This document shows positions 23,797 to 52,790 of a stretch of 64,000 bases of DNA, piece by piece. This DNA is from a bacterium (GTDB taxonomy: Bacteria; CAYTYR01; UBA6262): NCBI GenBank assembly GCA_028712365.1, contig JAQTQE010000007.1, positions 1,026 to 65,025 of the forward strand, given 5' to 3'. Numbering within the stretch: position 1 is the stretch's first letter; every line of letters begins with the position of its first letter. Made by a program: the position numbers and the translations under genes. Below the pieces are notes generated by a model. The model searched no databases. It was not told the DNA's origin and saw only the letters and a program-made list of their open reading frames with translations.

Positions 23797-23895
23797 TGGG
23801 TATTAGGTTAGGAAATAAGTTTGGTTTAAGGTCTCTGGGTGTTAGGCTCCAAACCACAAACCTCAGACTTACTTCCATACCTACTTCTACAACTA
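23797..23895. repeat. Intergenic palindromic repeat, family A, core TACTTCCATACCTACTTC[TC]ACAAC. Copy 1.
   Basis: It is an imperfect inverted repeat whose right arm reads ...CAGACTTACTTCCATACCTACTTCTACAAC. It lies immediately 3' of tolR. Confidence 0.6.
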
Positions 23896-23969
23896 TTAAC
23901 CTTTCTTCAGTTTTCACGAATTCTTAAGAATATATATAGCAAAAAATACATTATTTTGTAAAGCTCTTT

Positions 23970-24377
23970 CTATGGTTTTTCCGGTTCCGTGGCGATAGCC
24001 AGTTTTTCCACTCCGCTTTTTTTCGCGACGTCCATAGCCTGGACAACCACCCCATGCAGTACCGCCCGGTCCGCTTTTATGATCAAAGCAGTATCTTTAC
24101 GGGTGGAATATTCTGCTTTCAATTCCTGGGGTAAAGTAGCCAGATACACTTTTTTTTCATTAAGATAGAACTGGTTATCCTTGGTAATGGTCAACACCAG
24201 CTGTTTTTCCGGATGGGGATCGCTTGTGGCCGCTTTTGGCAGTTTTACTCCTATGGCCTGTGGTAAACCAAAGCTGGCCCCGATCATAAAAAAGATGACC
24301 AGGTTAAAGATAACATCAGTCATCGGGGTTGGGTCCAGCCGCTCTATCAGGCGATGATGTCTTCGCTTAAACTTCAT
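23970..24377 (-). CDS. tolR: Biopolymer transport protein ExbD/TolR.
   Basis: It has a single TM (VIFNLVIFFMIGASF) followed by a periplasmic ExbD fold. Confidence 0.85.
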   Translation of the reverse strand: MKFKRRHHRLIERLDPTPMTDVIFNLVIFFMIGASFGLPQAIGVKLPKAATSDPHPEKQLVLTITKDNQFYLNEKKVYLATLPQELKAEYSTRKDTALIIKADRAVLHGVVVQAMDVAKKSGVEKLAIATEPEKP

Positions 24378-24394
24378 AATGCCCTCATGTCCTT

Positions 24395-25042
24395 CTAATC
24401 TTTTTCCCTGGTCACTATACCTACCAACTCAGCCGATCCTTTTTCTATTCCCAGTACAAAATTATCTACCTTGGAAATAAAATAATTATACGCTACCACT
24501 GTGGGGATCGCGATGAAAAGGCCGTAAGCAGTGGTTATCAGGGCTTCACTCACTCCACTGGCGACAACCTGGGGAGTAGTGACATTGGCCGAGGCAATGG
24601 CATTAAAAGCGGCGATCATCCCGGTTACCGTGCCGGTAAAACCAAGCAAAGTAGAAACACTGGCTAAAGTGGACAAAGGAGATAAAAACTTTTCTAACCG
24701 GGGAATAGCATCCAGCCCCGCTTCTTCCATGGCTTCTTCCATAGCTACCCGGCCATGCTCTTTATCTTTTAGGCCAGCGGCCAGGACAAAGGCCACCGGA
24801 CCGGGAGTCTTTTCGCAGAGGGAGATCGCCTCAGCGACCCGGTCCGCATAAACCATTTTTTTTAGCTCCGCCATAAAACCGGCCAGATCGGTTTTAATCC
24901 GGTGATAATAAAAGAACCTTTCGATGATGATCGCGGCCGATAATATGGAACACATTAACAGCGGCCACATCATTATTCCGCCCTTGGCAAAATACTCCAG
25001 CACGATTTTCTCCTTTTTTTCGCTTTTACTCTCAACTACCAA
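24395..25042 (-). CDS. tolQ: MotA/TolQ/ExbB proton-channel protein.
   Basis: It shows the three-TM topology and the conserved C-terminal helices (LGFTGTVTGMIAAFNAIA...). Confidence 0.85.
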   Translation of the reverse strand: MVVESKSEKKEKIVLEYFAKGGIMMWPLLMCSILSAAIIIERFFYYHRIKTDLAGFMAELKKMVYADRVAEAISLCEKTPGPVAFVLAAGLKDKEHGRVAMEEAMEEAGLDAIPRLEKFLSPLSTLASVSTLLGFTGTVTGMIAAFNAIASANVTTPQVVASGVSEALITTAYGLFIAIPTVVAYNYFISKVDNFVLGIEKGSAELVGIVTREKD

Positions 25043-25085
25043 CTACGAGCCCCGCTGCAAATCGGGGCGGACTATGAACCGGTTC

Positions 25086-26387
25086 CTAAGGTGACCAACT
25101 GGGGGTTTGTATCTCTCCCTTAAATTGGTCAGAAAATTCCCCGGGAAACAAGGGTCGCTGGCTAGAGCCGTCATTATTCATGACAAACAATTGGCTTTGA
25201 CCGTTACGCGTACTGACAAAAACCAGGAATCTCCCGTCAGGCGACCAGCTGGGATTTTCATTACGTTTGGCCCCCTTGGTCAACTGCTGCTGGTAATTAC
25301 CGCTGAGATCGGTAGTAAAAATGTTAAATTCACCCTGTGACATCCGGCAAACATAGGCGATCCGCTCGCCGGTTGGCGACCACTCAGGAGAATCCGTGTA
25401 AGTGTTGTTGTAGATCAACCGGCGCACATTCGCGCCATCAATATCCGTTACGAAGAGTTGCGGTATCCCGGTCCGGTCGCTGATAAAAACAATGTCCCGG
25501 TTGCTTGGCGACCAGCTGGGAGAAGAATCAATATTCTTATTATTGGTCAGGCGGCGCAGCATTTCCCCGACAGGATTCAGCAGGTATAACTCAGGATTAC
25601 CATCTTTGCTCAAGACGATCACCAGTGAGTTGCCGTCAGGAGAATACCTGGCCATGGAATTCAGGCCCTGGTAGCCCGACAACCTTTTTCGCCCGGTGCC
25701 ATTCTCTTTAATGACATATAAGTCAGGATTATTATCCTTATATGAAGTGTAGAGTATCTTATTACCATCAGGAGTCCACTTTGGCAGCAAGACCAGGGAA
25801 TTTTCCTTGGTCACCTGCTTCAATCCATAACCGTCGTAATCAACCGCGTAAATCTCCCGGCTACCTTTGTAGTCGCCTACAAAACATATCCGGGTATGGG
25901 CGATCCCTTTTTCGCCGGTATAGCGGAAAACTATTTCATCGCTGAAATCGTGGACAGACTTGCGCAGGATAGGCTTGACCGCCTTATATCGCACCCCGGT
26001 GACCCTGACCTTACTGGCAGTATCGAACAGATAACATTCCAGGAGATACTGGCCATCTTTTTTAGAGATCGTTCCTTTTACTACCGCGTCCACTCCCTGT
26101 TCGCTTAATTCATTATAATCCAAGGTGGCAGACTGCAATTGTTGTTCTTCTATCCCTTCGGTTATAGTAAAATATCCGGATAAGTACAAGTCATTCTTGA
26201 TGATCGCCGCGATCTGGGCCCCCATATTATCTTCACCCAGGTCTTCGATTTCAGTAAAAGGCGCCACGGCTACGGTTATCTTGCGGGAGTCAAACCTGGA
26301 GACATCGATTCTGACATCAGCCGGAGCCGCAAAAGCAACAGAGACTATGCTAAAAAGTATTATTAAAAGCAGATAAATTTTGCGCAT
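25086..26387 (-). CDS. tolB: Tol-Pal system beta-propeller protein TolB.
   Basis: It has a signal peptide, an N-terminal TolB domain and repeated SPDG/WSPDG blades. Confidence 0.8.
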   Translation of the reverse strand: MRKIYLLLIILFSIVSVAFAAPADVRIDVSRFDSRKITVAVAPFTEIEDLGEDNMGAQIAAIIKNDLYLSGYFTITEGIEEQQLQSATLDYNELSEQGVDAVVKGTISKKDGQYLLECYLFDTASKVRVTGVRYKAVKPILRKSVHDFSDEIVFRYTGEKGIAHTRICFVGDYKGSREIYAVDYDGYGLKQVTKENSLVLLPKWTPDGNKILYTSYKDNNPDLYVIKENGTGRKRLSGYQGLNSMARYSPDGNSLVIVLSKDGNPELYLLNPVGEMLRRLTNNKNIDSSPSWSPSNRDIVFISDRTGIPQLFVTDIDGANVRRLIYNNTYTDSPEWSPTGERIAYVCRMSQGEFNIFTTDLSGNYQQQLTKGAKRNENPSWSPDGRFLVFVSTRNGQSQLFVMNNDGSSQRPLFPGEFSDQFKGEIQTPSWSP

Positions 26388-26388
26388 G

Positions 26389-27072
26389 CTAATCCTCTTT
26401 CATAATATGGTTAAAATGGAAATGTATATTCAGCTCTTTTTCTTGGTACCCTTCTGGCAAAGGAAGAAATTTCTGGCAGCGCAAAATCGCCTTTAAGGCC
26501 AGCTGATCATAAAAATCAACGCCTGAAGATTTTTCTATTTTTAAGTCCTTGATCGTCCCGTCTCTTTCAATTAGAAAATAAACAACTACTTTATGCGAGG
26601 CGATCTGATTAATATCCCAATTGCTTTTCACCTGTTTCGTAAGGCTATTTAAATAATATTGATAATTGAAATCTTTTACATCAGGCACAGCCGTTGTTAG
26701 CTGCGTTTTAGCCGGGGCCGCTTCTACCGGAGCCGGAGCAGCCTGTGGGACTGTTTTAGCCTCTGGCTTTGGCTCAGCGGCTTTTCCTTTTGGCTTAATG
26801 ACAATGGCCTCTTTTTTCGGTTCTGCTTTTTTCTCTTTTGTCTTTTTTGGTTCCTTAGCTTTCTTTTTTTTCAGGACCGGCTTGACTTGTTCCGCCGGCT
26901 GAGCGACACTGGGTGGTTCAGCGACAGGCAATGATACCAGTTCTACCGGGGAAGAGAGCCAATAACGCACGGTCTTCCGCTGGAATCGCGGCCCCGTCAT
27001 CACAAATAAAGCTATATGTAAACAAAGTGACAACAATAACGCTCTTTTAAGGGTCATTTCCGGCGTTATCAC
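26389..27072 (-). CDS. TonB/TolA-like energy-transducer protein, probably the TolA functional analogue.
   Basis: It has an N-terminal TM, a Lys/Pro/Ala-rich linker (KKKKAKEPKKTKEKKAEPKK...) and a C-terminal TonB_C-like domain (VVVYFLIERDGTIKDLKIEKSSG). Confidence 0.65.
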   Translation of the reverse strand: MITPEMTLKRALLLSLCLHIALFVMTGPRFQRKTVRYWLSSPVELVSLPVAEPPSVAQPAEQVKPVLKKKKAKEPKKTKEKKAEPKKEAIVIKPKGKAAEPKPEAKTVPQAAPAPVEAAPAKTQLTTAVPDVKDFNYQYYLNSLTKQVKSNWDINQIASHKVVVYFLIERDGTIKDLKIEKSSGVDFYDQLALKAILRCQKFLPLPEGYQEKELNIHFHFNHIMKED

Positions 27073-27078
27073 TATATC

Positions 27079-27816
27079 CTACTCCTTCTTTTTAGGCTTA
27101 TTCCATTCCTTCTTTTTTTCCTCGGCAGACTTGGCTTCATCAGAGTCAGGATATTGGTCTATAACTTCATCCAGCAAGGCTAAAGCTTCTTTTTTCTTGT
27201 CCGTTAATTCCAAGGCTAAAGCAATTTTAAGTTTGGCCGGGGGATTTTTAATGCTTTGGGCATAAGCCAGGTTGACTTTCTTGAATTCTTCGATCGACTG
27301 GTCATATTTCTGCTGGCTGAAAAAACTCTCCCCGATCCAGTATTGGGCGCTGTCTGCCAGTACCCCGGCGGGATATTTCTCCAGGTATTGCCGAAATCCC
27401 ATTATCGCCAGGTCAAAATTACCCTTGGTATAATCAGTATACGCGGTCTGGTAAAGTTTTTCCGAAGAAACCGTTAATTCAGCCGCGGCCCGGTCTTCCA
27501 GGGCTTTTAACCGCGCTTGATGCGCGGCCTCCAGGTTATCTATCCGCAAACCGATCTTATCCATTTTATTATTACTTTCGTCAACTTTAGCTTCAACCTT
27601 TTGCTGGCCAAGTTCCAGGGTGTCCATCCTGGCCCCGATGTCCGCTTGACCGATCTTGATCTTCGAGGTGGATTTGCTCATGCCCTGCTGTACTCCCCCA
27701 ACCTGCTCCTGCAGCCTGGCCAGGTCCTCTTGCAGCGTAGCCATTTCCTCCCTGGTAGCAAAACAACCAGGCAGGCATAATCCGCCCAATATAAATAATA
27801 AAATTATTCTTTTCAT
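27079..27816 (-). CDS. cpoB: Tol-Pal system protein CpoB/YbgF (coiled-coil plus TPR).
   Basis: It has a lipoprotein-like signal, an N-terminal coiled coil and C-terminal TPRs (YTKGNFDLAIMGFRQYLEKYPAG...AQYWIGESF). Confidence 0.75.
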   Translation of the reverse strand: MKRIILLFILGGLCLPGCFATREEMATLQEDLARLQEQVGGVQQGMSKSTSKIKIGQADIGARMDTLELGQQKVEAKVDESNNKMDKIGLRIDNLEAAHQARLKALEDRAAAELTVSSEKLYQTAYTDYTKGNFDLAIMGFRQYLEKYPAGVLADSAQYWIGESFFSQQKYDQSIEEFKKVNLAYAQSIKNPPAKLKIALALELTDKKKEALALLDEVIDQYPDSDEAKSAEEKKKEWNKPKKKE

Positions 27817-27822
27817 ATTCGC

Positions 27823-28383
27823 CTATTTGACAGCCGGCGCCAAATGTGCCCGCCGGTTCTTGGCCCAGGCTTCTTCATTATGACCCGGATCAAGCGGTTT
27901 TTCTTTGCCGTAACTGATGGTGAAAATACGGGCTGAATTGATACCGGCCGCGATCAGGTAACTACGTACGGCAGAAGCTCTTTTCTGCCCGAGAGCCAGG
28001 TTGTATTCAACCGTACCCCGTTCATCCGCGTGTCCTTCGATCTGGACGACAACCTTGGGATTGCTCTTCAAGGTTTCCACGTTTTTAGCCAGTATATTCA
28101 TTGCCTCCTGGGTTAAAGTATATTGGTCATATCCAAAATAGACATCGTCCAGAGAAACGTTCATGACCCTGCTGAAATCTATCCCCCGGGCGCTTTGTTC
28201 TTCAGGGATAGCGCCTTCGTCCATGCTCCTATCATCTGTTTCCTTATCTTCAGCGGCTAATGCTTGGGCTCTTGTCCTGGCATCAGCCGAGGTTGGTTTT
28301 ACCGCTTTTTTAGCGCACCCTACCAACAAGAACAATATTAATAACCCCATGTAACCGAGCACAATTAACCTGCTTTTTTTCAT
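27823..28383 (-). CDS. pal: Peptidoglycan-associated lipoprotein (OmpA-family C-terminal domain).
   Basis: The signal is LLVGC. The OmpA_C motifs are VQIEGHADERGTVEYNLALGQKRA and YGKEKP. Confidence 0.85.
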   Translation of the reverse strand: MKKSRLIVLGYMGLLILFLLVGCAKKAVKPTSADARTRAQALAAEDKETDDRSMDEGAIPEEQSARGIDFSRVMNVSLDDVYFGYDQYTLTQEAMNILAKNVETLKSNPKVVVQIEGHADERGTVEYNLALGQKRASAVRSYLIAAGINSARIFTISYGKEKPLDPGHNEEAWAKNRRAHLAPAVK

Positions 28384-28425
28384 AACTTACCTCCTTATTT
28401 GTTCTATCTTACATTATACAACCGT

Positions 28426-31224
28426 CTAATTTAAAGTCAAGAACTGTTTCAGGTATTGCCCGGTATATGATCCCTGCTCCGCGGCTACTTCCTCCGGTGT
28501 GCCGGAAATGATCAATCGGCCGCCGGCGGCCCCGCCCTCTGGGCCCAGATCAATAATATGATCAGCGGTTTTAACTACATCCAGGTTATGTTCGATGATC
28601 AAGACCGTATTACCTTTATCCGTTAACCGGTGCAGCACATCCAACAAATTATGGATATCGGCAAAATGCAATCCAGTCGTTGGCTCGTCCAGGATATAGA
28701 TGGTCTTCCCGGTACTGCGCCGGCCCAACTCTGCCGCCAATTTAACCCGCTGCGCTTCGCCGCCGGATAAGGTGGTAGCTGATTGTCCCAGTTTAATATA
28801 ACCCAGCCCGACATCAAACAGGGACTGCAGGGGTTGTTGTATCTTGGGTACATTCTGGAAGAAAGCTAAAGCTTCTTCCACGGTCATATCCAGAACTTCA
28901 GCAATGTTTTTTCCTTTAAACTTGATCTCCAGGGTTTCCTGGTTGAAGCGCGCGCCCTGGCATTCTTCGCATTTAATATAAACATTAGGAAGAAATTGCA
29001 TCTCAATTTTAATAACCCCGTCTCCCTGGCAGGTTTCGCATCTTCCACCCTTGACATTAAAGCTGAAACGTCCTGGTTCATATCCCCTGACCCGGGCCTC
29101 AGGCAGTTTACTGAATAATTCCCTGATCGGGGTAAATACCCCGGTATAGGTAGCTGGATTAGAACGCGGGGTTCGTCCGATCGGGGACTGGTCCACCATG
29201 ATCACCTTATCTATCAGGTTCAGTCCCTTGATGGTCGTGAATTTCCCTGGTTTTTCTTTGGCCTGCCCTAACTTCTGGGCCAGGGCTTTATAAATAATTT
29301 CGTTGACCAGGGTGCTTTTGCCTGAGCCGCTCACTCCGGTGACGCAGACAAATAATCCTAACGGGATCTTGACATTAATATTTTTCAGGTTAAAATGACT
29401 GGCGCCGATTATTTCCAGGTACCGGTTGCCTGGGTTCCTTCTTTCTGCAGGTATGGGGATCTTTATTTTGCCGCTTAAATATTTGCCAGTGGGAGAATCA
29501 TCGCAGGCCAGGATATCCTGGAGCGATCCCTGGCAGACGATCCTGCCCCCGTGCTCTCCAGCCCCGGGACCCAGGTCCAGTATATGTTCCGCTCTTTTAA
29601 TAGTGTCCACATCATGTTCTACGATCAAAACAGTATTACCCAGCTTTTTTAATTCTTCCAAGCTATCTAATAAGCGTGCCGTATCGCGGGCGTGCAGGCC
29701 GATAGTCGGTTCATCCAGGACATATAACACCCCTACCAGTCCGGAACCGATCTGGGTAGCCAATTGTATGCGCTGCGCTTCTCCACCGGCCAAAGTACTG
29801 GTTTCCCTGGCCAAGGTAATATAGTCCAATCCGACATCCAATAAAAATTTCAGCCGGACCTTGATCTCCTTCAATATCTGCTGGCTGATCTTCTGTTCCT
29901 TCTCATTCAAGGGCAGGGTCTGGAAAAATTCCATACTCTCCTTGATAGATAATAAGACAAGGTCAGCGATCGATTTGTTCCTGATCTTCACGCTCAAAGC
30001 TTCCCGGCGCAGGCGCGCGCCTTTGCAGGCCGGGCAGGGATGGGTCATCATATATTTCTGGTAAATTTCTTCGCGTACAAAATCGCTTTCTGTCTCTTTG
30101 TAGCGCCGCTGCAGGTTAGTGATAACTCCCTCAAAAGTACCGGCGCCGTCACCATACAAAATAATATCCTGTTTTTCCGGAGAGAGTTTTTTGAAAGGCA
30201 CTTCCAGGGAGATCCCATATTTTTTCGAAACACCCGCCAATAGTCCAAAATACCAGTTATTCCAGGCCCCTTTCCAGCGGTGCCGCTTGGTCGTGATCGG
30301 CTGGCTCCACGGGACCAGTGCCCCGTCATATATGGACAAATCCCGGTTAGGGACTACCAGATCAGGATCCACTTCGATCTTATGTCCCAGTCCGGTACAC
30401 TCGGGACAAGCACCCTGCGGCGCATTGAATGAAAAAAACCGCGGCGTTATTTCCGGCAGGCTGATGCCGCATTTCTGGCAGGCATGATGCTCGCTATACA
30501 CCTGGTCTTGGCCAGTTATATTGATCACGACCACGCCCTGTCCTAGTTTCAACGCTGTTTCCACGGAATCAGCGATCCGGCTTTTTGATCCCTGGGATAC
30601 CTCTATCCGGTCCAGCAGCACCAGGATATCATGTTTTTTCTTTTTATCCAGTTTAATATCTTCTTCCAGGGCATATTGTTTGCCATCTATTCGGACCTTC
30701 AGGTATCCTTCTTTGCGGACTCGCTCAAACAAATCCCGGTACTCTCCCTTGCGGCCCTGGACCAGGGGAGCCAGGATCTGGACCTTGGTGCCAAAAGGCA
30801 ATTTATTGATCTGGGTAATGATCTGTTGGGCGGTTTGCGGTTGTATCGGCGAGCCGCACTGCGGACAAAAAGGTTTGCCGATACGGGCAAAAAGCAAACG
30901 CATATAGTCATAGATCTCCGTGGTAGTGCCGACGGTGGACCGGGGGTTGTGCGACATGGCTTTTTGCTGGATGGCAATGGCCGGGGACAAACCTTCGATA
31001 TAATCGAGGTCTGGCTTGTCCATTTGTTCCAGGAATTGGCGGGCATAAGCGCTTAATGATTCCACATAACGACGCTGGCCCTCGGCATAAATAGTATCGA
31101 ACGCCAGCGAAGATTTACCTGACCCGGACATCCCCGTGATCACGACCATCTGGTTGCGGGGTATTTCCACATCTATATTTTTTAGATTGTGCTCTCTGGC
31201 ACCTTTAATGATTATCTTATCCAT
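28426..31224 (-). CDS. uvrA: Excinuclease ABC subunit A.
   Basis: The N-terminus is [64 protein letters not shown]. There are two ABC ATPase modules, zinc-finger CxxC motifs and a length of 932 aa. Confidence 0.95.
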
Positions 31225-31365
31225 ATATCACCTTTAAAATTTCTAAATCCTAAGCCCTAAATCCTAAACAAATTCCAAGCCCTAAATTCAAATTTTCAAA
31301 ATACCGCGACATTTGAATTTTGAACATTTGAAATTGTTTAGAGTTTAGATATTAGGATTTCGGAT
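31225..31365. repeat. Family B palindromic repeat, the longest copy.
   Basis: ...CTAAATCCTAAGCCCTAAATCCTAAACAAATTCCAAGCCCTAAATTCAAATTTTCAAAA ... TTTGAATTTTGAACATTTGAAATTGTTTAGAGTTTAGATATTAGGATTTCGGATTTAAG. It lies between uvrA and the response regulator. Confidence 0.6.
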
Positions 31366-32145
31366 TTAAGCCTTCCCTATCAGTTCTTCGATCTTTTTCA
31401 GTAACTGGTCCGGTTCAAAGGGCTTGGTCATATACGCGTCAGCCCCTAATTGCTGTCCCAAATTGCGGGATTCCTCAGCGCTACGGGCCGTTAACATGAC
31501 GATCGGTATCTTCTTATAATTATTATCGAATTTAAGCATCCGGCATACTTTAAATCCATCTATCACCGGCAAGACCAGGTCCAGGAGGATCAAGTTGGGA
31601 TTGACCTTGTGTACCAACTCTAAACCAGCTTTGCCGTCGTGAGCCATAAATACGCTGTAGCCATTGGCTTCCAGCCTGATTTTCAGCATCCTGGCAATAG
31701 GCACCTCATCATCCACCACTACGATCTTTTTACGATTATCAGTCTCCGCCGGCGCCTGCTTGGCCTGGAACTCAGCCAGTAACTGCCGGGTCATGTACAC
31801 AATAATATCCGCGGCCGCCGGTTTTTTAATATATTTGGTGACGCCCAGGGTCATCGCTTCCAATAAAGCGTCTCTTTCAGTTTCATCGGATAATATCAGG
31901 ATGGGCCAACCTTTGGTGCGTTCATTCGTTTTTAGCCGCCGGACAAACTCCACCATGCTGACGATCAGTATCTTATCATCGATCACTACCGCGTCAAAAG
32001 TGCGCTCAGCGGTCATGACCTCATAAAGGCCTCTCTTGCCGTCACCGCACAAAGTTACCTCAAAATTATCCACGCTGAACTTGGTTTTAAGTTCTTCCCC
32101 CAGCTCATAATTATCACTAATGATCAAAACACTTTTATCCGCCAT
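31366..32145 (-). CDS. Response regulator with two receiver domains. The first is atypical and the second canonical.
   Basis: REC2 shows VVVDDE...ILLDLVLPVIDGF...TKPF. REC1 lacks the usual acidic pair (IISDN). Confidence 0.7.
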   Translation of the reverse strand: MADKSVLIISDNYELGEELKTKFSVDNFEVTLCGDGKRGLYEVMTAERTFDAVVIDDKILIVSMVEFVRRLKTNERTKGWPILILSDETERDALLEAMTLGVTKYIKKPAAADIIVYMTRQLLAEFQAKQAPAETDNRKKIVVVDDEVPIARMLKIRLEANGYSVFMAHDGKAGLELVHKVNPNLILLDLVLPVIDGFKVCRMLKFDNNYKKIPIVMLTARSAEESRNLGQQLGADAYMTKPFEPDQLLKKIEELIGKA

Positions 32146-32159
32146 TGCTCAACCTCTGG

Positions 32160-32278
32160 AACTTAGTCTATGGGTATAAGTTGTGGAAGTAGGTATAGAA
32201 CTAAGTCTGAAGTTTTTGGGTCAAAACCAATTCCCTTAGACTTTAGACCAAACTTACTTCCAAAACTTTCAACTTACT
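32160..32278. repeat. Family A palindromic repeat, copy 2. It is a full hairpin element.
   Basis: The left arm GTATAAGTTGTGGAAGTAGGTATAGAACTAAGTCT pairs with the right arm AGACTTTAGACCAAACTTACTTCCAAAACTTTCAACTTAC. It lies between the two response-regulator genes. Confidence 0.65.
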
Positions 32279-32650
32279 TCATTTTAAGAGCTTTCGTATC
32301 TTTTCCATTAATATTTCCGGTTCAAAAGGTTTGGGCATATAATCATCCGCGCCGGCTATCACTCCCAGGTCAGTGGCTTTTTCTTCCGCTTTTACCGACA
32401 ACATCAAGACCGGGATGCTTTTAAAAACCGGATCATCCTTTAACTTGCGGCATACTTCAAAACCATCCATCTTCGGCATCATAACATCCAGGATGATCAA
32501 GTCAGGTTGACTTTGCTGTACCTTAGCCAGGCCTTCCAGACCGTCATTGGCTACGTCTGCTTCATAACCTGATGCTTCCATCCGGATCTTCAGCATCCTG
32601 GCGATCTGCTTTTCATCATCAACAATGAGTATCTTTTTTTTCACAACCAA
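32279..32650 (-). CDS. Single-domain CheY-like response regulator.
   Basis: ILIVDDE...LIILDVMMPKMDGF...MPKPF motifs are present. Confidence 0.8.
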   Translation of the reverse strand: MVVKKKILIVDDEKQIARMLKIRMEASGYEADVANDGLEGLAKVQQSQPDLIILDVMMPKMDGFEVCRKLKDDPVFKSIPVLMLSVKAEEKATDLGVIAGADDYMPKPFEPEILMEKIRKLLK

Positions 32651-32664
32651 TTAATCCTTAGGAC

Positions 32665-34107
32665 TCACAAGGGGCGGTCTTGTAAGTTATTATGGGCTGA
32701 TTCCAATAGTTCTTTTGGCTTATCGCTATTATCCGGATAAGTGGTCCGTCCTATCTTGAGCCATGGTTTCTTTTCTTTTATCCGTAATTCAGCCCTGGAC
32801 AGTGATTCAATGATCCTGTGTTCCACGGCTTTGACTCCTTCCGCGTTCGCTTCCGGCAAAATAATGATCACTTCTTCACCCTCGATGATCACTTTATCAT
32901 ATGGCCGGCGCACCGTCCGGCTGATGAGCTGTTCCAGTTTTTTCAACTCCATTTCTATCTCAAACCCAGCCAGGTCCTTAAAATTATCCACCTTGATGAC
33001 CAGTATAGAAAACTTGGATTGGTAAATAAAAGCGGTCTTGATCACTTCTTCCAGCACTAACGTCAGGTAGTTCTTATGCTGGCGCTCTTCCAGGAATAAC
33101 TCATCTTCCGGCTTGATCTTGATCTCAGATTCTTTCTGTCCGGAATAACGAGGCAAAGTAAAAATAAATCTACTGCCTTTGCCCAATTCACTTTGCACGG
33201 AAATCTTGCCCCCATGGGCTTCTACCAGGCTCTTGGCAATAGACAATCCCAAACCACTACCGCCGCTCTGCCTGGTAAGATGAGAGCCAATTTGGTAAAA
33301 TTTTTCAAAGATCCTTTCCACCTCATCTTTAGGGATACCTAATCCGGTATCAGCCACACTTACTGCCACATAGCTAATATCAGCCTGGTCAGGTTCATTT
33401 ATTGTTTCTTTTTCAGCTACTGCTATTGTGATCCTACCACCCTCATTGGTAAATTTAAGGGCATTGTCTATCAGGTTGGTCACGATCTGGGTGATCTTAT
33501 CCGGATCGCCAAAGACCCTGGGCAATTCCCGGGGAATATCAAATTCCAAACCTATTTTTTTCTCCTGCATAGAAGCTTTATAACTATCTCTCAAATTTTC
33601 CAGCAGTTTGTTTATATCTACTTCCCTTTTAGCCAGCCGCAGCCTGCCAGCCTCGATACGGCTGACATCCAACAGGTCGCTGATCAGGCGCCCTAAACGA
33701 CTGGCCCCATCCAGAGCCATATTCAGGCATTCCTTTTGCGTCTCGTTAGTCGGTCCGGCTGTGCCATCCAGGTTCAGCCTAATGCCTTCTTTTATAATAG
33801 TCAATGGCGTGCGTAATTCATGGCTGACCATGGAAACGAATTCGCTTTTGGTCTGGTTCAGGCGCCGTAATTCATTCGTTTGCTGGTTAAGCCGTTCATA
33901 AGCAAAACTCAATTCATCATTGGCCGCCAGCAATTCAGACTGGGCAGCCTGTAATTCCTGCTGGCTGATCGTCAATTCTTTATTCTTTATCTCACACAGG
34001 GTATCGCTTTGGCGTTTACCCCAATAACCGATAGCCAGCAGGATCACCACTGCCAGCATCAGCAACACAAAGACAATCAGCAAATAAACATTGACCGGTA
34101 TATTCAC
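32665..34107 (-). CDS. Sensor histidine kinase with a C-terminal degenerate GGDEF-like domain.
   Basis: It has an N-terminal TM, a coiled coil, the H-box SHELRTPLT and the HATPase motif [19 protein letters not shown]. The roughly 150-aa tail aligns to GGDEF ([13 protein letters not shown]...[21 protein letters not shown]...ERI), but GG[DE]EF is replaced by EGEEV. Confidence 0.75.
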
Positions 34108-34134
34108 CCACTACTCCTAATTAAATTCCTTGTC

Positions 34135-36665: not shown

Positions 36666-36687
36666 ATATTCCTTGTTGAGGAGCTGT

Positions 36688-36797
36688 TATTAGGTATAAG
36701 TTTTGGAAGTAAGTTTAGTCATAGGTCTTAGGAAGTTTGGCTTAAAACCTTAAAACCTACTTCCTACTTCCATACCTACTTCCACAACCTTCACCCT
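36688..36797. repeat. Family A palindromic repeat, copy 3.
   Basis: The left arm GGTATAAGTTTTGGAAGTAAGTTTAGTCATAGGTCTTAGGAAGT pairs with the right arm ACCTACTTCCTACTTCCATACCTACTTCCACAACC. It lies between the hydrolase and panC. Confidence 0.65.
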
Positions 36798-36798
36798 A

Positions 36799-37689
36799 TT
36801 ATAAGTACTTATCAAAAAAGGCGATGACCTTTTCTTCATACTCTCTTGGCCACAAGCCATGCGCCTCCAAATGATCCGCCTCTGGCGCTATCCACAACTG
36901 CCTCGGCTCACCCGCCGCTTTAAACAAATCATCCTGATTCACCGGCGGTATCCGCACATCATTGGCGCCGCCAATAATAAAGACTGCCCGCGGGGAGATA
37001 TGGCCAATATATTTTGTGGCATCAGCTTTCCTGGCGCTAAATCCTGCCCGCAGTTCTGCGAACCATATAGCCGGCGGTACAAATGGATACTTCGGCAGGT
37101 TATAAAACAACTTGGCAAATTTGGTAATTGTCTTTTCAAAAGAAGCAAAACCACTGTCTGCCACTATTGCTTTTATCCGCGGATCATTAGCCGCCCCAAT
37201 TATGGCCACATTAGCTCCCATGGAGCAGCCAAGCACGCCTATCTTGTTTTGGTCAATATCCTTGCGAGTCATTAAGTAATTCACCGCGCCAGCCAGGTCC
37301 CTGGTCTCGTTATAGCCCAAGGTACATTTCCCCTTAGTCTGCCCATGAGCCCGGAAATCAAACACTAGGACATTATATTTATGGTGGTGCAGCATTTCCG
37401 CGAAAGTCAGAATATCGCTCTTATTGGTGCCATAGCCATGCAGAACTATAACCGTAGGCTTAGTGTTGTCACCCGGGATAAAAAAACCAATGGTTTGGAT
37501 GCCATCGGTAGAAGAAAAGGTCACGTCTTCATAAGACATATTCAATTCTGAAGGTTTAGTGTCCAGATCATACCGTGGCGGGGTTAAGATAAGCCGCGAA
37601 GCCCCCCACCCCCATATTATCGTCACAGCAACGATAATCACTACTATAGAAGTCCAAACAGGAACATGTATGTTAAAATAGTTAGTCAT
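36799..37689 (-). CDS. Alpha/beta-hydrolase (dienelactone-hydrolase/peptidase S9-like) with an N-terminal membrane anchor.
   Basis: It has an N-terminal TM. The nucleophile elbow is GCSMGA. The Ser-Asp-His order is GGANDVRIP...ADHLEAH. Confidence 0.75.
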   Translation of the reverse strand: MTNYFNIHVPVWTSIVVIIVAVTIIWGWGASRLILTPPRYDLDTKPSELNMSYEDVTFSSTDGIQTIGFFIPGDNTKPTVIVLHGYGTNKSDILTFAEMLHHHKYNVLVFDFRAHGQTKGKCTLGYNETRDLAGAVNYLMTRKDIDQNKIGVLGCSMGANVAIIGAANDPRIKAIVADSGFASFEKTITKFAKLFYNLPKYPFVPPAIWFAELRAGFSARKADATKYIGHISPRAVFIIGGANDVRIPPVNQDDLFKAAGEPRQLWIAPEADHLEAHGLWPREYEEKVIAFFDKYL

Positions 37690-40542: not shown

Positions 40543-40544
40543 TT

Positions 40545-40656
40545 AAACCCCTCTTGAAATACAATTTTGAATTTTGAGTGTTGAGTTTTGAATTATGGAA
40601 AAAGATTTTACCTTAACTTAAAACTTAAAACTCAAAACTTATAACTGCTTTTAAAA
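40545..40656. repeat. AT-rich palindromic repeat, a TTTTGAA variant.
   Basis: The inverted pair is TTTTGAATTTTGAGTGTTGAGTTTTGAA and TTAAAACTTAAAACTCAAAACTTATAA. It lies between dapL and the small membrane ORF. Confidence 0.45.
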
Positions 40657-40908
40657 CTACTTTTTAAAAACATAGATGATCTCACCAACCAGGATCAAGA
40701 GAACGACCGCGGCAATGATATTGGTGGTCAGGCTATGGGCTACCATTAAAGACCAAAACAGCCAGAACAATAATCCCATGCTGACAATTACTATGACTAT
40801 AGTCGCCGCCAGGTTTGCCGGATCCCAACCCTCCTCAACTTCTGGCGCCGTAATAACGGTTTGATTCTCAATCCTTGGTTTCTCGTCTCCGGCCATATAA
40901 CCCTCCAA
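40657..40908 (-). CDS. Small hypothetical membrane protein (83 aa).
   Basis: It has an acidic N-terminus and two TM helices. It is flanked on both sides by intergenic palindromic repeats. Confidence 0.35.
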   Translation of the reverse strand: MEGYMAGDEKPRIENQTVITAPEVEEGWDPANLAATIVIVIVSMGLLFWLFWSLMVAHSLTTNIIAAVVLLILVGEIIYVFKK

Positions 40909-41047
40909 ATATTAACACAAATTCTAAGCACTAATATCTAAACCTTAAACAATTTCAAAACTCCAAATCCTAATTTCTAAACGTTTTACATTTTAAGATA
41001 GATTTTGTCTAGGATTTCGATATTCGAATTTAGGATTTGCTCCAAAA
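40909..41047. repeat. Family B palindromic repeat copy.
   Basis: ...CCAAATCCTAATTTCTAAACGTTTTAC...GTCTAGGATTTCGATATTCGAATTTAGGATTTG. It lies between the small membrane ORF and the HEAT gene. Confidence 0.55.
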
Positions 41048-43090
41048 CTAGTATGTTTTATTCTTCTGCAGCCAGTTGTGCCATCTATCCTTGTCTTCAC
41101 CATAACTTTTACCGGTAATCCTCTCAAGCGCGACTGCCGCCACTACCCGGACACTGGCAAATTTGTCATTTAAAGCCTCGATCAATGGTTCCACTGCCTG
41201 TGCGTCCTTTATTTCTCCCAGGGCCCAGGCAGCTTTTTCCCGTACTCCTGAGTTGGGATCCTTTAAGATCTTGATCAACGGCAGGGTCGCCTGGTTGTGG
41301 GCGATCTCGCCAAGTGATTTAGCCACCTGCTCACGCACCAGTTCGCTTTCGTCCTGCAAGGCTTCTATTAAAGGTTGCACTGCTCTTGAATCCTTGATCT
41401 TGCCCAGGGCAAAAGCGACGTCGGTACGTATTTCCTTATTTTCATTTTTCAACGACATGATCAGCGGTTCTACCGCCCGGCTGTCACAAATTATACCCAG
41501 GGCTACCGCCGCTACGATACGCACATTTTTATCTTTATCTTTAAGCGCTCCGATCAATGGCTCCACTGCTTTGGGATCTTTTATCTTACCCAAAGACAAC
41601 GCGGCATTCCAACGCACTATATCAATTTTATCTTTAAGTAACCGGACCAGGGATTCAACTGCCCGGGGATCTCTCAACTCCCCCAAGGTCAAAGCGGAAT
41701 AACTGCGTACGACCTCATTGCTGTCATCCAGGGAAATGATCAACTGATCAATAGTTGCTTCTCCGATCTTCACCAATGCTTCAGAAGCTTTTTCCCGGAC
41801 CATTTCACTTTTGTCTTTCAACGCCAGGATCAGAGAAGCGATCGCCCGTTCATCCCTGATCTCCCCCAGGGCTTTAGCGGAATTTATTCTGACTTCTTCA
41901 TCCGCGTCCATTAAGGCTTCCGTCAGTCCCTCTAACGCCCGGTTGTCCCGCACTTCTCCCAATATTATGGCCACATTCCGGCGCACATTTACATTATTGT
42001 CTTTCAACGCCGAAATGAGCGGATTTACCGCCGGATTCCCGATGATCTTGGTAATAGCTTCGGTAACCGAACTTTGGATGAATTTAAAATTCTTTTCATC
42101 TCTCATGGCTTCGATCAGAGGCACCACCGCGCGGGTATCCCGTATTTCACCCAGCGCTTTGACTGCCTGCTCACGGACCATTTCACCTTTATCAGACAAA
42201 GCCGAGACTAAAGGGCCAACTGCCCGGTTATCCCTGATCACACCGAGCGCTTTAACCGCTTCTTCGCGGACAATGGCGCTTTCATCTTTTAATGCCAAGA
42301 CCAACGGCTCCACTGCCCGGCCATCGCCAATTTCACCGAGAGCTTTAGCCGCGTATTTCCTGATAAACCACTTATCATCGCTCAGAGCGGTAATTAACGG
42401 ATTAACCGCTGATTTGCCGATCTTAACCAAGGAGCGGGAAGCATACCGGCGGGCAATGTCATTCTTATCTTTAAGAGCGGTGATCAAAGCGGAAACCGCC
42501 GGTTCACCTATTCTCTCCAGGGATAGGATCGATTCCCTGAGCACAAAACCATCATCATCTTTCAAGCCGGCTACCAAGGCTTCCACTGCCCGGTTGTCAC
42601 CAATATCACCCAAAGCTTTAGCCGCGTGTTCCCTGACGGTGGAGTTCTCATCCCTGAGAGCGCCGATCAGGGCTTCTACCGCCCTGGTATTGCGCAGATC
42701 TCCCAGGGCCCGGGCAGCCTGGTCCCTGGCATACCACTTTTCCGCTTTGAGCGTCACGATCAGCGGATCAACGGCAGGCTCACCCGTGCTAACCAGGGCT
42801 TGTTCCGTGATCTCGATAAATTCACGGGAATTCGTATCCCCCAACAACTCGATCAGGTAAGGGATCGCTGGCGCTGCTTCTGCCCCCATATTCCTGAGGG
42901 CTATAACTGCCTGCTGTCTTTCATCTGGATTAGTGGAATACAATCTTTCTATTTGGGTCCTTACTGCTCCGGTAATAGAAGAGGGAATATGGGATGAGGT
43001 TTCATGCAACTGGGCAGATACTGGATTGGTGATGAACATAATGATACCGATTAATACTCCGAACCAACTCTTGGAGTTAATCGTTGTCAT
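41048..43090 (-). CDS. HEAT-repeat (PBS-lyase-like) protein, secreted or periplasmic.
   Basis: It has a signal peptide and about 18 tandem ~31-aa repeats (AA.ALG.IGD.RAVEPLI.ALKD....VR..A..ALG). The repetition is visible at the DNA level. Confidence 0.75.
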   Translation of the reverse strand: MTTINSKSWFGVLIGIIMFITNPVSAQLHETSSHIPSSITGAVRTQIERLYSTNPDERQQAVIALRNMGAEAAPAIPYLIELLGDTNSREFIEITEQALVSTGEPAVDPLIVTLKAEKWYARDQAARALGDLRNTRAVEALIGALRDENSTVREHAAKALGDIGDNRAVEALVAGLKDDDGFVLRESILSLERIGEPAVSALITALKDKNDIARRYASRSLVKIGKSAVNPLITALSDDKWFIRKYAAKALGEIGDGRAVEPLVLALKDESAIVREEAVKALGVIRDNRAVGPLVSALSDKGEMVREQAVKALGEIRDTRAVVPLIEAMRDEKNFKFIQSSVTEAITKIIGNPAVNPLISALKDNNVNVRRNVAIILGEVRDNRALEGLTEALMDADEEVRINSAKALGEIRDERAIASLILALKDKSEMVREKASEALVKIGEATIDQLIISLDDSNEVVRSYSALTLGELRDPRAVESLVRLLKDKIDIVRWNAALSLGKIKDPKAVEPLIGALKDKDKNVRIVAAVALGIICDSRAVEPLIMSLKNENKEIRTDVAFALGKIKDSRAVQPLIEALQDESELVREQVAKSLGEIAHNQATLPLIKILKDPNSGVREKAAWALGEIKDAQAVEPLIEALNDKFASVRVVAAVALERITGKSYGEDKDRWHNWLQKNKTY

Positions 43091-45646: not shown

Positions 45647-45728
45647 TTTCTTCCTCCTACCTTTCATAAACTATCTCTATTACGATCAACCACGAACGAC
45701 CAACTACGAACGTCTCTTGCTCTTTCTA

Positions 45729-46541: not shown

Positions 46542-46607
46542 ATATCCCCTTATTTTTAAAAACAATTACGCGGATTATTAACATTGATTACGCAGATTAG
46601 TAGGATA

Positions 46608-49866: not shown

Positions 49867-51342
49867 TTATTTGTTTCCCAGAGCCAATCCCGTGGCCACA
49901 TTCAATTCCTGTTCGCCTATGGTATACTCATAGGAATTATCCAAAGCCTGGATCCTGGTTTCTATGACTCTTTTCTGTATCGCCAGCAGGTCTGTGCAGG
50001 ATAGCTGGTCATTTTTGTAATAATTCAGCGCTGAATCCAAGGCCTTCTGCGCCAAGTCATTATTTTTGGACATTTCTTCCAGGTTTTTCCCGGCACGAAT
50101 ATATCGCCGGTAGCTTTCTTCTATGTTCATTTTCAGGTCATCACTGATCCGCACCTTCAGCAAATTGGTGGATTTCAACTCACTACGCATCTGCCTGACT
50201 CTCGCCCAGCTCAACCAGCCGTTGAACAACGGGTAATGCAATGCCACCGTAGCGGTCCAGTTCCTGCCCTCCAGCTCCGAATTTAATCCGCTGCGTTCAT
50301 AATCCGCGCCCAGCACGATAGTCGGATAACGCTCACTAAAAGCCTGGCTGATCTTATGGTTAATCTTTTTTTCTTCCAAAGAAAGTCCTTGCAGGACCGG
50401 CGACCGGTCAATGGCCAGGGCAATATAGGTATTCAAGCCCTGGCACTCTTCTCCAGGGATCACTGTTTTAAAATCACCGACCAGCTTTACCTGCGAGTCC
50501 AATTCAAATCCGACCGCCTTATTAAAGGCCGTATAAACCAGTTGGAGCTTTTCTTCTTCAGCCGCTATTTGCATCTCCCACCGGGAGCATTCGATCGTCA
50601 AGAGAGTGATCTCATAATCCTTCGCTTTGTTTTTGCTTTTAGCTGTTTCCAGATAAGTCTTAACCTGGGCCAAGGCTTCCCGGCTAAATTCCAGCGCCTG
50701 CTGCTGGTAGAGAACGCTATAAAACCTCTGGGTCACTTCCAGGTAAACTTTCCGCTTGGTTGTTTCATATGCCTTATTAGTGATATCGAGATCTTTTTTC
50801 GCGATATTAAGCTGGTTAATAAGATAGCCGCCGGTAAATAAAGACTGGCTGACAGAGATCCTGGCCGCGTAGTGATTGCTGACTCCCACTGCCAAACTGG
50901 ATCCGCCCAAGCTAGGCGGCAACGTGGTAGGCGTACCCACGTTCAAGCGGGTATAAGCGCCAGTCAGGTTGATCTTGGGGAAAAAATAAGAATCAGCTTC
51001 TTCAATTTTCTGCTCGGCAATATATTTTTTTTCTGAGGCTTCCAATAACTCCTGGTTGTTGGTCATAGCCCATTTAATGCTGTCTTCCAGGGTTAGTATC
51101 TTTTCCGGCTGTTCCAGCGCCCAAGAGGCAGTGCCCCAATATAATAAGCATAATAATAAAAGTATTTTTTTAACGAACCCAAGAGTTGTATTAGATTTTG
51201 AGAACCGAGACGTAAAAGTGCGATATTTTCCCGCATAAAAAATTGTGAGCATACTCACAGGAGTATGTAAGCAATTTTTTAGAAAGGAAAATGAAGCAAT
51301 ATTACGTCGAATTCCTAAATCTAACGCAATTTTTGGGTTCAA
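49867..51342 (-). CDS. TolC-family outer-membrane efflux protein.
   Basis: Two OEP repeats and coiled-coil helices are present. The signal peptide (ILLLLCLLYWGTASWA) lies about 60 aa inside the ORF. The start could be the ATG overlapping the argH stop (ATGA) or the internal Met at about 51252. Confidence 0.65.
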   Translation of the reverse strand: MNPKIALDLGIRRNIASFSFLKNCLHTPVSMLTIFYAGKYRTFTSRFSKSNTTLGFVKKILLLLCLLYWGTASWALEQPEKILTLEDSIKWAMTNNQELLEASEKKYIAEQKIEEADSYFFPKINLTGAYTRLNVGTPTTLPPSLGGSSLAVGVSNHYAARISVSQSLFTGGYLINQLNIAKKDLDITNKAYETTKRKVYLEVTQRFYSVLYQQQALEFSREALAQVKTYLETAKSKNKAKDYEITLLTIECSRWEMQIAAEEEKLQLVYTAFNKAVGFELDSQVKLVGDFKTVIPGEECQGLNTYIALAIDRSPVLQGLSLEEKKINHKISQAFSERYPTIVLGADYERSGLNSELEGRNWTATVALHYPLFNGWLSWARVRQMRSELKSTNLLKVRISDDLKMNIEESYRRYIRAGKNLEEMSKNNDLAQKALDSALNYYKNDQLSCTDLLAIQKRVIETRIQALDNSYEYTIGEQELNVATGLALGNK

Positions 51343-52712
51343 GATAATTCCTTCTGCTCTTTCTTAATCCCGGCCAGCACCTGGAGCGGAGCAGTGCCGC
51401 CGGTTGATTTTTTCCGTTTGAGGCAATTCTCGATCTTGATAAACGAGAAAATATCCTGGTTGAATTTAGGGCTAAACTGCCGGTATTCTGCCAGCTTCAG
51501 GTCATGGAAGTCTTTATGCTGTTCCAGGCAATACTTAACCAGGCTGCCAACGACAAAATGCGCTTGCCGGAAAGGGATGCCTTTTAAAACCAGGTAATCA
51601 GCGATATCCGTGGCTTCCATCAAACCTTTGGCTATTTTCTGCGCCATGTTGTTGGAACAGACCTTCATGGTCCTGACCAGTTCACCGGTGATAGCCAGGG
51701 TATCATTGACTGTATCTACCGTATCGAATAGCGGACCTTTGTCTTCCTGCAGGTCCCGGTTATAGGATAATGGCAATCCTTTCAGCAATGTCAGCAAGGC
51801 CATCAGGTTACCATAGATCTTGCCGCTTTTGCCGCGGATCAGCTCTGCCACATCCGGATTCTTCTTCTGCGGCATGATGGAAGAACCTGTGCAGAAAGCA
51901 TCGGCCAGTTCCACAAATTCAAACTCGCTGGAACTCCACAGCACCAACTCCTCTGCTAACCGCGAAAGATGCATGATCAGGATAGAAGAAACAGCCAGGA
52001 ACTCAATAATAAAATCCCGGTCACTGACCGTGTCAACACTGTTCTCGCTCACTTTCGGGAAATTGAGCAATTTGGCGGTAAATTCCCGCCGTACCGGATA
52101 ATTCACCCCGGCTAAAGCCCCTACTCCCAGGGGCAGGACATTGGTCCGCCCAAGGCATTCGGCAAACCGGGCCTTATCCCGTTTGAGCATATAATAATAG
52201 GCCATGATATAGTGGCTGAACAAGATCGGCTGGGCATGCTGCATATGCGTATAGCCCGGCATCACGACTTTAATATTTTTCTCAGCCACGTTCAGCAATA
52301 CCTTTTGTAATTGAGCAATACCCTTGATAATATCCTCTGTCTCAGAACGCAAAAACAGACGCACATCCAGCAGCACCTGGTCGTTACGCGACCGGGCAGT
52401 ATGTAGTTTTTCCCCTACCGGCCCGATCTTGGCGATCAGTTTTTTTTCTATAGCCATATGGATATCTTCGTCAGTCTGCTTGAAAATAAATTTCCCGGCT
52501 TCGATCTCTTTGAGGATACTTTTTAGGCCAGCTTTGATACCGGCTGCTTCTTTTTTGGAAATAATACGGCTTTTTGCCAGCATGGTAGCATGGGCAATGC
52601 TACCGGCAATATCATAGGCATACAACCGCTTATCAACTTGAATGGAAGCAGTATAGTCCTCGCATTGTTTGTTCGTGGATCCCTTGAACCGTCCACCCCA
52701 TAATTTTTTCAT
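51339..52712 (-). CDS. argH: Argininosuccinate lyase.
   Basis: MKKLWGGRF at the N-terminus and the signature GSSIMPQKKNPD. Confidence 0.9.
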   Translation of the reverse strand: MKKLWGGRFKGSTNKQCEDYTASIQVDKRLYAYDIAGSIAHATMLAKSRIISKKEAAGIKAGLKSILKEIEAGKFIFKQTDEDIHMAIEKKLIAKIGPVGEKLHTARSRNDQVLLDVRLFLRSETEDIIKGIAQLQKVLLNVAEKNIKVVMPGYTHMQHAQPILFSHYIMAYYYMLKRDKARFAECLGRTNVLPLGVGALAGVNYPVRREFTAKLLNFPKVSENSVDTVSDRDFIIEFLAVSSILIMHLSRLAEELVLWSSSEFEFVELADAFCTGSSIMPQKKNPDVAELIRGKSGKIYGNLMALLTLLKGLPLSYNRDLQEDKGPLFDTVDTVNDTLAITGELVRTMKVCSNNMAQKIAKGLMEATDIADYLVLKGIPFRQAHFVVGSLVKYCLEQHKDFHDLKLAEYRQFSPKFNQDIFSFIKIENCLKRKKSTGGTAPLQVLAGIKKEQKELS

Positions 52713-52744
52713 GGCAAAACTCCAATTTTTAGTCTATTAATTAT

Positions 52745-52790
52745 CACCAACCTAAGACCTACTTCTATACTTACTTCTACACCTTTCACC
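52745..52790. repeat. Family A repeat, half-element.
   Basis: CCTAAGACCTACTTCTATACTTACTTCTACACC sits between argG and argH. Only one arm is recognisable. Confidence 0.45.

Follow-up and report, generated by a model that had tools for sequence, protein, structure and literature searches.

Why does one long hairpin recur between the genes of a bacterial contig, and is it a mobile repeat, a structured part of the messenger RNA, or both? The question is raised by a 64,000-nucleotide (nt) stretch of DNA (GenBank assembly GCA_028712365.1, contig JAQTQE010000007.1, positions 1,026 to 65,025; hereafter the window), in which a first-pass annotation had noticed four related palindromic copies and proposed a family resembling repetitive extragenic palindromic (REP) sequences or MITEs (miniature inverted-repeat transposable elements). 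Our analysis confirmed that the four loci carry one repeat, here called family A, and supported its placement among the dispersed hairpin repeats. Family A is very probably a dispersed, non-autonomous repeat family of the kind represented by REPINs, MITEs and enterobacterial repetitive intergenic consensus (ERIC) elements. As judged from the sequences compared here, it has been copied to many unrelated genome sites in a narrow clade of uncultivated Gram-negative bacteria.

Family A copies and their genomic context

Three of the four copies in the window are full length. A1 (23789..23907, 119 nt) and A3 (36683..36802, 120 nt) lie on the minus strand, in the sense of the neighboring genes, whereas A2 (32165..32279) lies on the plus strand and has a polarity antisense to the genes that flank it. 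The fourth, A4 (52745..52795, minus strand, sense to the genes), is a half copy that comprises the 5' arm alone and forms no hairpin; it resembles a REP singlet and is apparently what is left of a decayed copy. The core GTRGAAGTARGTATRGAASTA, the reverse complement of the motif originally reported, has four exact matches in the window, all of them at A1–A4, whereas no match occurred in 100 dinucleotide-preserving shuffles (expected 0 vs 4 observed). A profile built from 33 copies, taken from the window and from loci of metagenome-assembled genomes (MAGs), and run with nhmmer recovered the same loci at 23794-23903 (-), 32170-32277 (+), 36685-36800 (-) and 52745-52795 (-), and no others. The window copies scored 89-104 bits in the forward direction versus 33-56 bits in the reversed one, A2 reaching 89 bits on the plus strand and 56 bits on the minus strand.

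All four copies occupy gaps between two minus-strand genes, whose products were assigned by Pfam. A1 is flanked by exbD/tolR (23970..24377) and by a small membrane open reading frame (ORF) starting at 23772. A2 separates two response-regulator genes (32279..32650 and 31366..32145) and adjoins the TGA stop codon at 32279-32281. A3, which carries a 7-nt GGAAGTA duplication, lies between an alpha/beta-hydrolase gene, whose TAA stop codon (36799-36801) overlaps the first bases of the element, and panC, whose start at 36665 is 19 nt beyond the end of the element. A4 is located between argG (52816..54054) and argH (51339..52712). Each copy had been described as sitting directly after a stop codon and before a same-strand gene; the same-strand setting holds throughout, but A1 begins 62 nt past the exbD stop codon.

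The same arrangement is seen in the wider collection. All copies with two visible neighbors sit between long ORFs, and none is inside a real gene. The upstream stop codon ends a median of 7 nt before the element; in 10 of 27 copies it is in, or abuts, the first 12 nt of the element. On the other side, the distance to the next start codon is 21 nt at the median (interquartile range 13-27.5), just sufficient for a ribosome-binding site. The genes on either side are of ordinary operon types: tol-pal/exbBD, the two response regulators, panC and argG/argH in the window, and ispD/ispF, aroK, def, recX and an ABC-transporter operon around the MAG copies, the last of these (locus L039) with four copies within 8 kb. 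Where the neighboring genes are co-directional, the element is oriented in the direction of the genes in 25 of 28 copies (binomial ~1.4e-5, one-sided). In the window itself, the minus strand carries all 52 long ORFs together with the tmRNA gene and three tRNA genes, and GC skew is negative throughout. A single gene, tRNA-Leu(CAG) at 16695-16781, is on the plus strand; it overlaps the smpB ORF at the latter's over-extended 5' end.

Anatomy and folding of the hairpin

Alignment of the 33 copies with their flanks, read by the information content of each column, placed the ends of family A at AGTAATAGGGTG... and ...CACCTAATAACT. The consensus in the forward sense is AGTAATAGGGTGAAGGTTGTAGAAGTAGGTATGGAAGTAGGTCTGAAGTTTGTGGTTTAGAGCCTAACACCCATAGACCTCAGACCAAACTTACTTCCAAAACTTACACCTAATAACTG. 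The length is 117-120 nt in 31 of the 33 copies, and the exceptions have internal duplications of 7 or 12 nt or a small deletion. The 5' arm is G/T/A-rich and nearly C-free, the 3' arm is its C/A/T-rich complement, and the two pair over almost the whole length of the element; the blocks GAAGTAGGTATGGAAGTA and AAACTTACTTCC are the best conserved, while the center and the outermost positions are variable. Family A has a polarity and is not a symmetric palindrome, since nhmmer scores it at ~85-120 bits in one direction and at 25-55 bits in the other.

The minimum free energy (MFE) of the RNA on the better-folding strand is -32.6 kcal/mol for A1, -41.1 for A2 and -44.8 for A3 (z = -2.55, -3.74 and -4.25, respectively); the folds of A1 and A3 are given on the gene (minus) strand, whereas A2 folds better on the plus strand. 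Across the 33 copies the MFE ranges from -23 to -46 kcal/mol. The half copy A4 has no fold (z = +1.07). Of the palindromic hairpins originally described, A1–A3 are thus long and imperfect hairpins, whereas the copies, having a polarity, are not equivalent palindromes, and A4 does not fold at all.

RNAalifold applied to the family A alignment returned just a 12-pair invariant core. A 37-pair hairpin was derived from the same alignment, with complementarity extending from AGTAATAGGGTG to CACCTAATAACT; 89% of its cells are paired, 10 pairs show changes on both sides (50 cells vs 32 cells in shuffles, with 0 of 500 shuffles reaching the observed value), and sliding the partners by one column lowers the pairing to 49-57%, all figures that are biased in favor of this structure because it comes from the alignment on which they were computed. 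Single arms folded alone as DNA had an MFE of 0 kcal/mol, no better than shuffles, and showed no self-complementarity. The autocorrelation of the arms peaks at lag 7, 12 or 13, with no significant periodicity (shuffle p = 0.07-0.57).

Distribution across genomes

Further copies beyond the window had been predicted, and they exist. A scan of species-representative genomes gave at least 105 loci, mostly chance 20-mer matches, and at least 30 full copies were found in 23 loci of four other MAG species (CAYTYR01, JAQTPL01, DJVG01 and CAZFDO01). Full-length copies, with 75-89% identity over ~100 nt, were confined to those four species among the matches listed. The density is 3.5 copies per 64 kb in the window and, beyond the copies by which the loci were selected, 8 copies per 104 kb in 13 CAYTYR01 loci, that is, ~55-77 per Mb; the earlier guess of hundreds of copies genome-wide is plausible.

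The four MAGs are 74-90% identical to each other where their regions overlap. The record for DJVG01 names Elusimicrobia bacterium UBA6262, of the phylum Elusimicrobiota, and the lineage carrying family A is probably Elusimicrobiota. Gene products of the window include Tol-Pal/ExbBD, TonB-dependent receptors and an efflux protein of the outer membrane, and pilin-like N-methyl proteins flank one of the MAG copies; this fits a Gram-negative host of the Elusimicrobiota type, not the 'Clostridia' as which two of the records are labeled. The window and the MAG loci have in common family A, the sibling families B and D described below, and one 246-nt block. The missing synteny between them was considered as a sign of a distant relationship and rejected, as the loci come from other parts of the genome.

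Outside this clade the searches were negative. No family A was present in 0.95 Mb of metagenome loci that carry a nadB homologue 56-71% identical and represent more distant relatives; these loci have partial synteny with the window and few long hairpins, and they gave no empty sites, the window carrying extra genes at the junctions concerned. Neither the IMG/VR viral contigs, in which 70 matches of 20-mers were due to chance, nor the plasmids and phages searched contained the family, and blastn against 5,426 complete E. coli genomes gave no match at E <= 0.001. The elements might also have belonged to a known Rfam family, but Rfam 15 gave no match to them at the gathering threshold in the window, and none on A2 or A3 at E <= 5. 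No earlier description of the core motif, or of repeats in Elusimicrobia, was found in the searchable literature. As far as Rfam and this literature show, family A is previously undescribed.

Divergence and inheritance of the copies

The window copies are 66-68% identical to each other and up to 76-85% identical to MAG copies. The mean pairwise identity of the 33 copies is 72%, and divergence within genomes is as large as between genomes. The low identity among the window copies and the overall mean therefore indicate an old, diverged population with no recent burst.

Four orthologous spacers were seen, three of which share a copy, one of them partly visible. Both fully visible pairs come from CAYTYR01 and DJVG01. 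The copies L006_2522 and L063_362 are 94.2% identical, versus 82% over the surrounding 5.4 kb, and share private variants seen in no other copy, which argues for inheritance rather than for independent insertion or homogenization. The copies L071_1730 and L063_7666 are 96.0% identical, versus 74% in the surroundings, and their identity equals the highest of any 120-column window in that alignment (0.97). Among the 120-nt windows of their alignments, both pairs rank near the 99th percentile or equal the top. The fourth spacer has different occupants, family A in CAYTYR01 (L006 3446-3570) and a hairpin of the sibling family F in DJVG01, which points to turnover or replacement of hairpin families.

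The copies are unusually well preserved. Their constant length at 72% identity and the slow divergence of the two orthologous pairs suggest that the hairpin is under purifying selection, although the sample is small. By these comparisons, family A is old, vertically inherited and lineage-restricted.

Comparison with known hairpin repeats

By analogy, the closest systems in architecture and population biology are REPINs (PMC3116915; bioRxiv 10.1101/2022.05.22.493013, 10.1101/2021.07.10.451892), which are REP doublets that form hairpins and are mobilized by RAYT transposases (Bertels and Rainey 2011, PMC3116915). Family A shares with them a hairpin of ~100-120 nt, two conserved inverted blocks around a less conserved center, and compensatory changes. 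Like REPINs, it is extragenic and multi-copy, leaves single-arm remnants and shows no variable target-site duplication; its population is likewise old, diverged, vertically inherited, lineage-restricted and absent from phages and plasmids. It differs in that its arm is not a palindrome, which is a defining feature of a REP, and in that the element is A/T-rich rather than G+C-rich. No linked RAYT gene was found in the window or among the genes flanking the copies, and the element has a strong sense bias and adjoins the stop codon.

ERIC (~127 bp) and Correia/NEMIS elements are imperfect palindromes of the MITE type over their whole length and are co-transcribed with their neighbors (Delihas 2011, PMC3184786). 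They resemble family A in size, in the imperfect palindrome that spans the entire element, in their transcribed intergenic sites near the 3' ends of genes, and in plausible effects on mRNA processing or stability. In contrast, family A has no sequence similarity to them, as judged from the E. coli genomes and Rfam, shows no demonstrable duplication of TA or of any other target, and is in the sense orientation in 25 of 28 cases, whereas ERIC and Correia elements occur in both orientations. Of the features by which bacterial MITEs are recognized (PMC3184786), family A has the small size (usually <200-400 bp), the lack of a transposase or other coding capacity, the terminal inverted repeats and the long stem-loop; further features of MITEs are flanking target duplications, a parent insertion sequence that has the same ends and supplies transposase in trans, and presence/absence polymorphism at orthologous sites, on which the observations are given below.

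A third comparison is with the intergenic direct repeats of the heptamer TAACTGA in cyanobacteria, Beggiatoaceae and some Bacteroidetes (MacGregor 2015, PMC4679880). These, too, are intergenic, near start codons, biased in orientation with respect to the downstream gene and lineage-restricted, and the 7-nt periodic arms of the sibling families B–E resemble them further. However, the heptamers are tandem direct repeats that form no long hairpins (PMC4679880), whereas family A is a single 118-nt hairpin unit without significant periodicity.

Proposed mechanism and alternative explanations

Taken as a whole, we favor, with some reserve, a reading in which family A is a REPIN/MITE-like repeat that was copied in trans, sits in operon spacers, is transcribed there and is possibly kept as an intercistronic hairpin. 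The element would have been copied by a transposase acting in trans, in the fashion of REPINs or MITEs, and its copies would be tolerated in operon spacers alone. Because they lie within operons and are mostly in the sense orientation, the copies would be transcribed as part of polycistronic mRNAs. In the mRNA, each would form an imperfect hairpin of ~37-45 bp that extends from the upstream stop codon to ~10 nt before the next ribosome-binding site. Retained copies might, with less certainty, be kept by selection as a barrier to 3' exonucleases or as a processing site for RNase III/E, setting the relative stability of the neighboring cistrons. A role in mRNA processing or stability has been reported for REP, ERIC and Correia elements (PMC3184786), and by analogy with these we tentatively suggest that the retained copies of family A may serve, or be constrained, as intercistronic RNA hairpins that act as stability barriers or processing sites; we hold this part of the reading with much less confidence than the dispersal itself.

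Several observations weigh against this reading. The two strands fold equally well: the mean MFE is -34.8 kcal/mol in the forward and -34.4 in the reverse direction, the forward strand being better in 18 of 33 copies (p = 0.70). The excess of G-U over A-C cells (139:32 in sense copies) is not reversed in antisense copies (18:8); this excess is partly circular, as it reflects how the structure was derived, and it looks like an inherited trait of the family rather than selection on the RNA of each copy. Covariation of the arms is also expected from terminal inverted repeats that co-evolve at the DNA level, and the RNA-level role is one that we infer from related elements. On the side of mobility, no variable target-site duplication was found when all boundary offsets were tried for k = 2-8, which answers in the negative the test suggested in the first-pass annotation; the best result was 9 of 32 copies at k = 2, with 4 expected, and a fixed TA or TAATA may lie within the conserved A/T-rich termini. 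Pfam revealed no transposase, RAYT or integrase among 50 proteins scanned from the window and 10 small ORFs beside MAG copies, no longer element bounded by family A ends was present in the window or the MAG loci, and no clean empty site for family A was recovered among the orthologous spacers seen. Mobility thus rests on the dispersal of the copies and on the one spacer that is differently occupied. The conservation argument, for its part, is based on the two full orthologous pairs that could be aligned; the third pair, of which 50 nt are visible, is 84% identical versus 83% in its surroundings and so is no better conserved, and the half copy A4 shows that decay of copies is possible. Finally, since a single strand carries all protein-coding genes of the window and GC skew does not change along it, orientation relative to genes is inseparable from orientation relative to replication.

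The last point is shared with the main rival, in which family A is a selfish REPIN- or PATE-like element without host function. It would be moved by a single-strand transposase (Y1/HUH, RAYT or IS200/IS605 type) that makes no target duplication and has a replication-linked strand preference; the sense bias would then reflect genes and replication running together, and copies would survive in operon spacers just because they are harmless there. With genes and replication co-oriented, the sense bias fits selection at the RNA level or strand-biased single-strand insertion. The missing target-site duplications, the equal folding of the two strands and the singlet remnant A4 are all in line with such an element, as are the conserved inverted arms with compensatory changes around a less conserved center, known from REPINs (PMC3116915), and the vertical, lineage-restricted distribution without phage or plasmid copies, known from REPIN-RAYT systems (bioRxiv 10.1101/2022.05.22.493013). 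However, arms devoid of self-complementarity offer no REP-type palindrome for a RAYT to recognize, and Pfam found no Y1 transposase in the 64-kb window or beside the copies. Neutral copies would also not be expected to stay 94-96% identical where coding DNA is 74-82% identical, nor to hold a length of 117-120 nt at a mean identity of 72%. We regard a purely selfish element as rather unlikely, though it comes closer than any other alternative.

A role as transcription terminators or attenuators after genes, also proposed initially, is very improbable. The hairpins do begin at or near stop codons, and ~10 of the 33 copies, all from genomes other than that of the window, are followed by a short T-run. 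The stem, however, is A/T-rich and ~40 bp long, and the sequences after the 3' arms of A1–A3 (AACAGCAAGG, TTTTAAGAGC and AACAGCTCCT) contain no U-tract. A promoter and terminator scan of 23000-41500 called nothing at these three copies, although it found a canonical terminator at 23558-23531. Copies also lie between genes of a single pathway, such as argG and argH or the neighbors ispD and ispF, where termination would be harmful, and one window copy, A2, is antisense. Even less credible are two further explanations. The elements have a surface likeness to the attC sites of integrons, such as the Vibrio VCR/attC arrays, being imperfect palindromes of ~120 nt that follow ORFs directly in one orientation and may be serial, as in L039; but the genes between them belong to conserved housekeeping operons that are syntenic between species and not to cassettes, the core sites RYYYAAC and GTTRRRY are absent from the consensus ends, and Pfam identified no integrase gene in the window. 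Independent origin in place, by slippage or expansion of short units, could explain the internal 7-nt and 12-nt duplications of some family A copies and recalls the tandem 7-nt units in the arms of sibling families of the same genome; yet a single 119-nt consensus, which has definite ends and a polarity, is common to 33 copies from unrelated loci, and the arms of family A are not significantly periodic. Like the attC reading, it has almost nothing to recommend it over copying of one element.

Sibling hairpin families and other features of the window

This lineage has at least six families of hairpin repeat, family A among them; B, D and F were also seen in CAYTYR01 loci. Together, A and its siblings occur in 9 of the 13 gaps of at least 80 nt in the window. 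Units of 7 nt repeated in tandem make up the arms of families B–E (lag 7 or 14, shuffle p <= 0.006), whereas the arms of family A lack this structure. The set of hairpin families and their exchange at one spacer are the more unusual aspect of the system.

Family B comprises hairpin repeats of ~90-140 nt at 12955-13083, 16084-16121, 31225-31367 and 40910-41047, with arms of tandem TTTAGGA/TTTAGAA and their complement (lag-7 autocorrelation 0.54-0.66, shuffle p = 0.000). Three of these are full hairpins in operon spacers, namely between queD-like and racemase genes, between uvrA and a response regulator, and upstream of a HEAT-repeat gene; the remaining one is a single arm directly 5' of the tmRNA gene, and further copies are found in the CAYTYR01 loci L023 and L019. 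Family C is represented by two hairpins of ~65-90 nt (54190-54290 and 54365-54455) built from GCTAAAT/GCTGGAT heptamers and their complement; they fill the spacers between tRNA-Arg, tRNA-Lys and tRNA-Leu (54102-54529) and so probably belong to a tRNA operon transcript. The family D hairpin (110 nt, 40545-40660) is made of AAGTTTT/GAGTTTT heptamers, with a 33-nt match of 97% identity in the CAYTYR01 locus L086; after it come a small ORF and next a copy of family B, all within one 505-nt gap. Family E consists of GTTGATC/GTTCGTG heptamer tracts in two short gaps, queC/queD-like (12529-12579) and dapA/dapF (45668-45728). Family F, a 130-nt hairpin of NNATCAGG units of the ATCAGG type, was seen at L063 1251-1405 in DJVG01 and at L019 1977-2101 in CAYTYR01; its MFE is -52.8 kcal/mol over a 155-nt stretch that includes flanks.

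Two more non-coding features were noted in the window. The 246-nt block at 37725-37970, in the gap between panB and a hydrolase gene, is 91% identical to L081 5028-5269 of JAQTPL01, with sharp boundaries, a 4-nt indel and unrelated flanking genes. Its MFE has a z of about -2 on both strands, the overlapping 119-amino-acid ORF has no Pfam match, and the block has no Rfam match at E <= 1; it is a candidate for a conserved RNA or another mobile non-coding block. Just past the argH stop codon, a unique 100-nt near-perfect palindrome (51209-51308) has 48-nt arms that are 4 nt apart and 73% complementary. With the TTG start that was called, the outer-membrane efflux ORF includes it in its N-terminal part; an efflux gene start at an ATG near 51150 is more likely, and the palindrome would then be another intergenic hairpin.

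The tmRNA gene (15726-16075; Rfam 182 bits), directly downstream of smpB (16123..16782), has the predicted tag ANYNTQYAYAC, which ends in ...YAC. An alanine-rich ...LAA or ...VAA is the more usual ending of tmRNA tags. The window also has three paralogous genes for TonB-dependent receptors (57098..59302, 60293..62443 and 62467..63960), with 71-78% DNA identity, which alternate with ABC_sub_bind genes in a recently duplicated uptake module (57098-63960). Outside the window, a hairpin-forming insertion of ~160 nt, unrelated to family A, is present in CAZFDO01 (L004 ~1205-1365) and absent at the orthologous DJVG01 site (L058 7416-7427). It is the sole clean filled-versus-empty pair among the loci examined and could define the ends and target of another element.

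Implications

REP, ERIC and Correia-type hairpin repeats are known mainly from Proteobacteria, Firmicutes and cyanobacteria. Family A extends this kind of element to an uncultivated lineage labeled as Elusimicrobiota. With its fixed length, its sense bias and its fixed position between stop codon and ribosome-binding site, it is an unusually clean case for the question of whether such repeats are selfish or useful, and in the two orthologous pairs that are fully visible, the copies evolve more slowly than neighboring genes. In practical terms, these hairpin repeats will mislead ORF callers, predictors of terminators and small RNAs, and assemblers in this lineage, while the family A profile could be used as a lineage marker.

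A bolder and, in our judgment, improbable extension would be that family A and its siblings B–F form a host-maintained 'operon punctuation': structured intercistronic RNA modules that purifying selection maintains in sequence, length and sense orientation and that are read by a dedicated RNA-processing or RNA-binding factor and set the stoichiometry of cistrons. The modules would be interchangeable, because different families occupy the same spacer in sister species. If this were true, the heptamer-periodic arms of the siblings would point to a mechanism of recognition or generation with a 7-nt step, and would be relevant to the heptamer repeats of cyanobacteria and Beggiatoaceae, which have long lacked an explanation.

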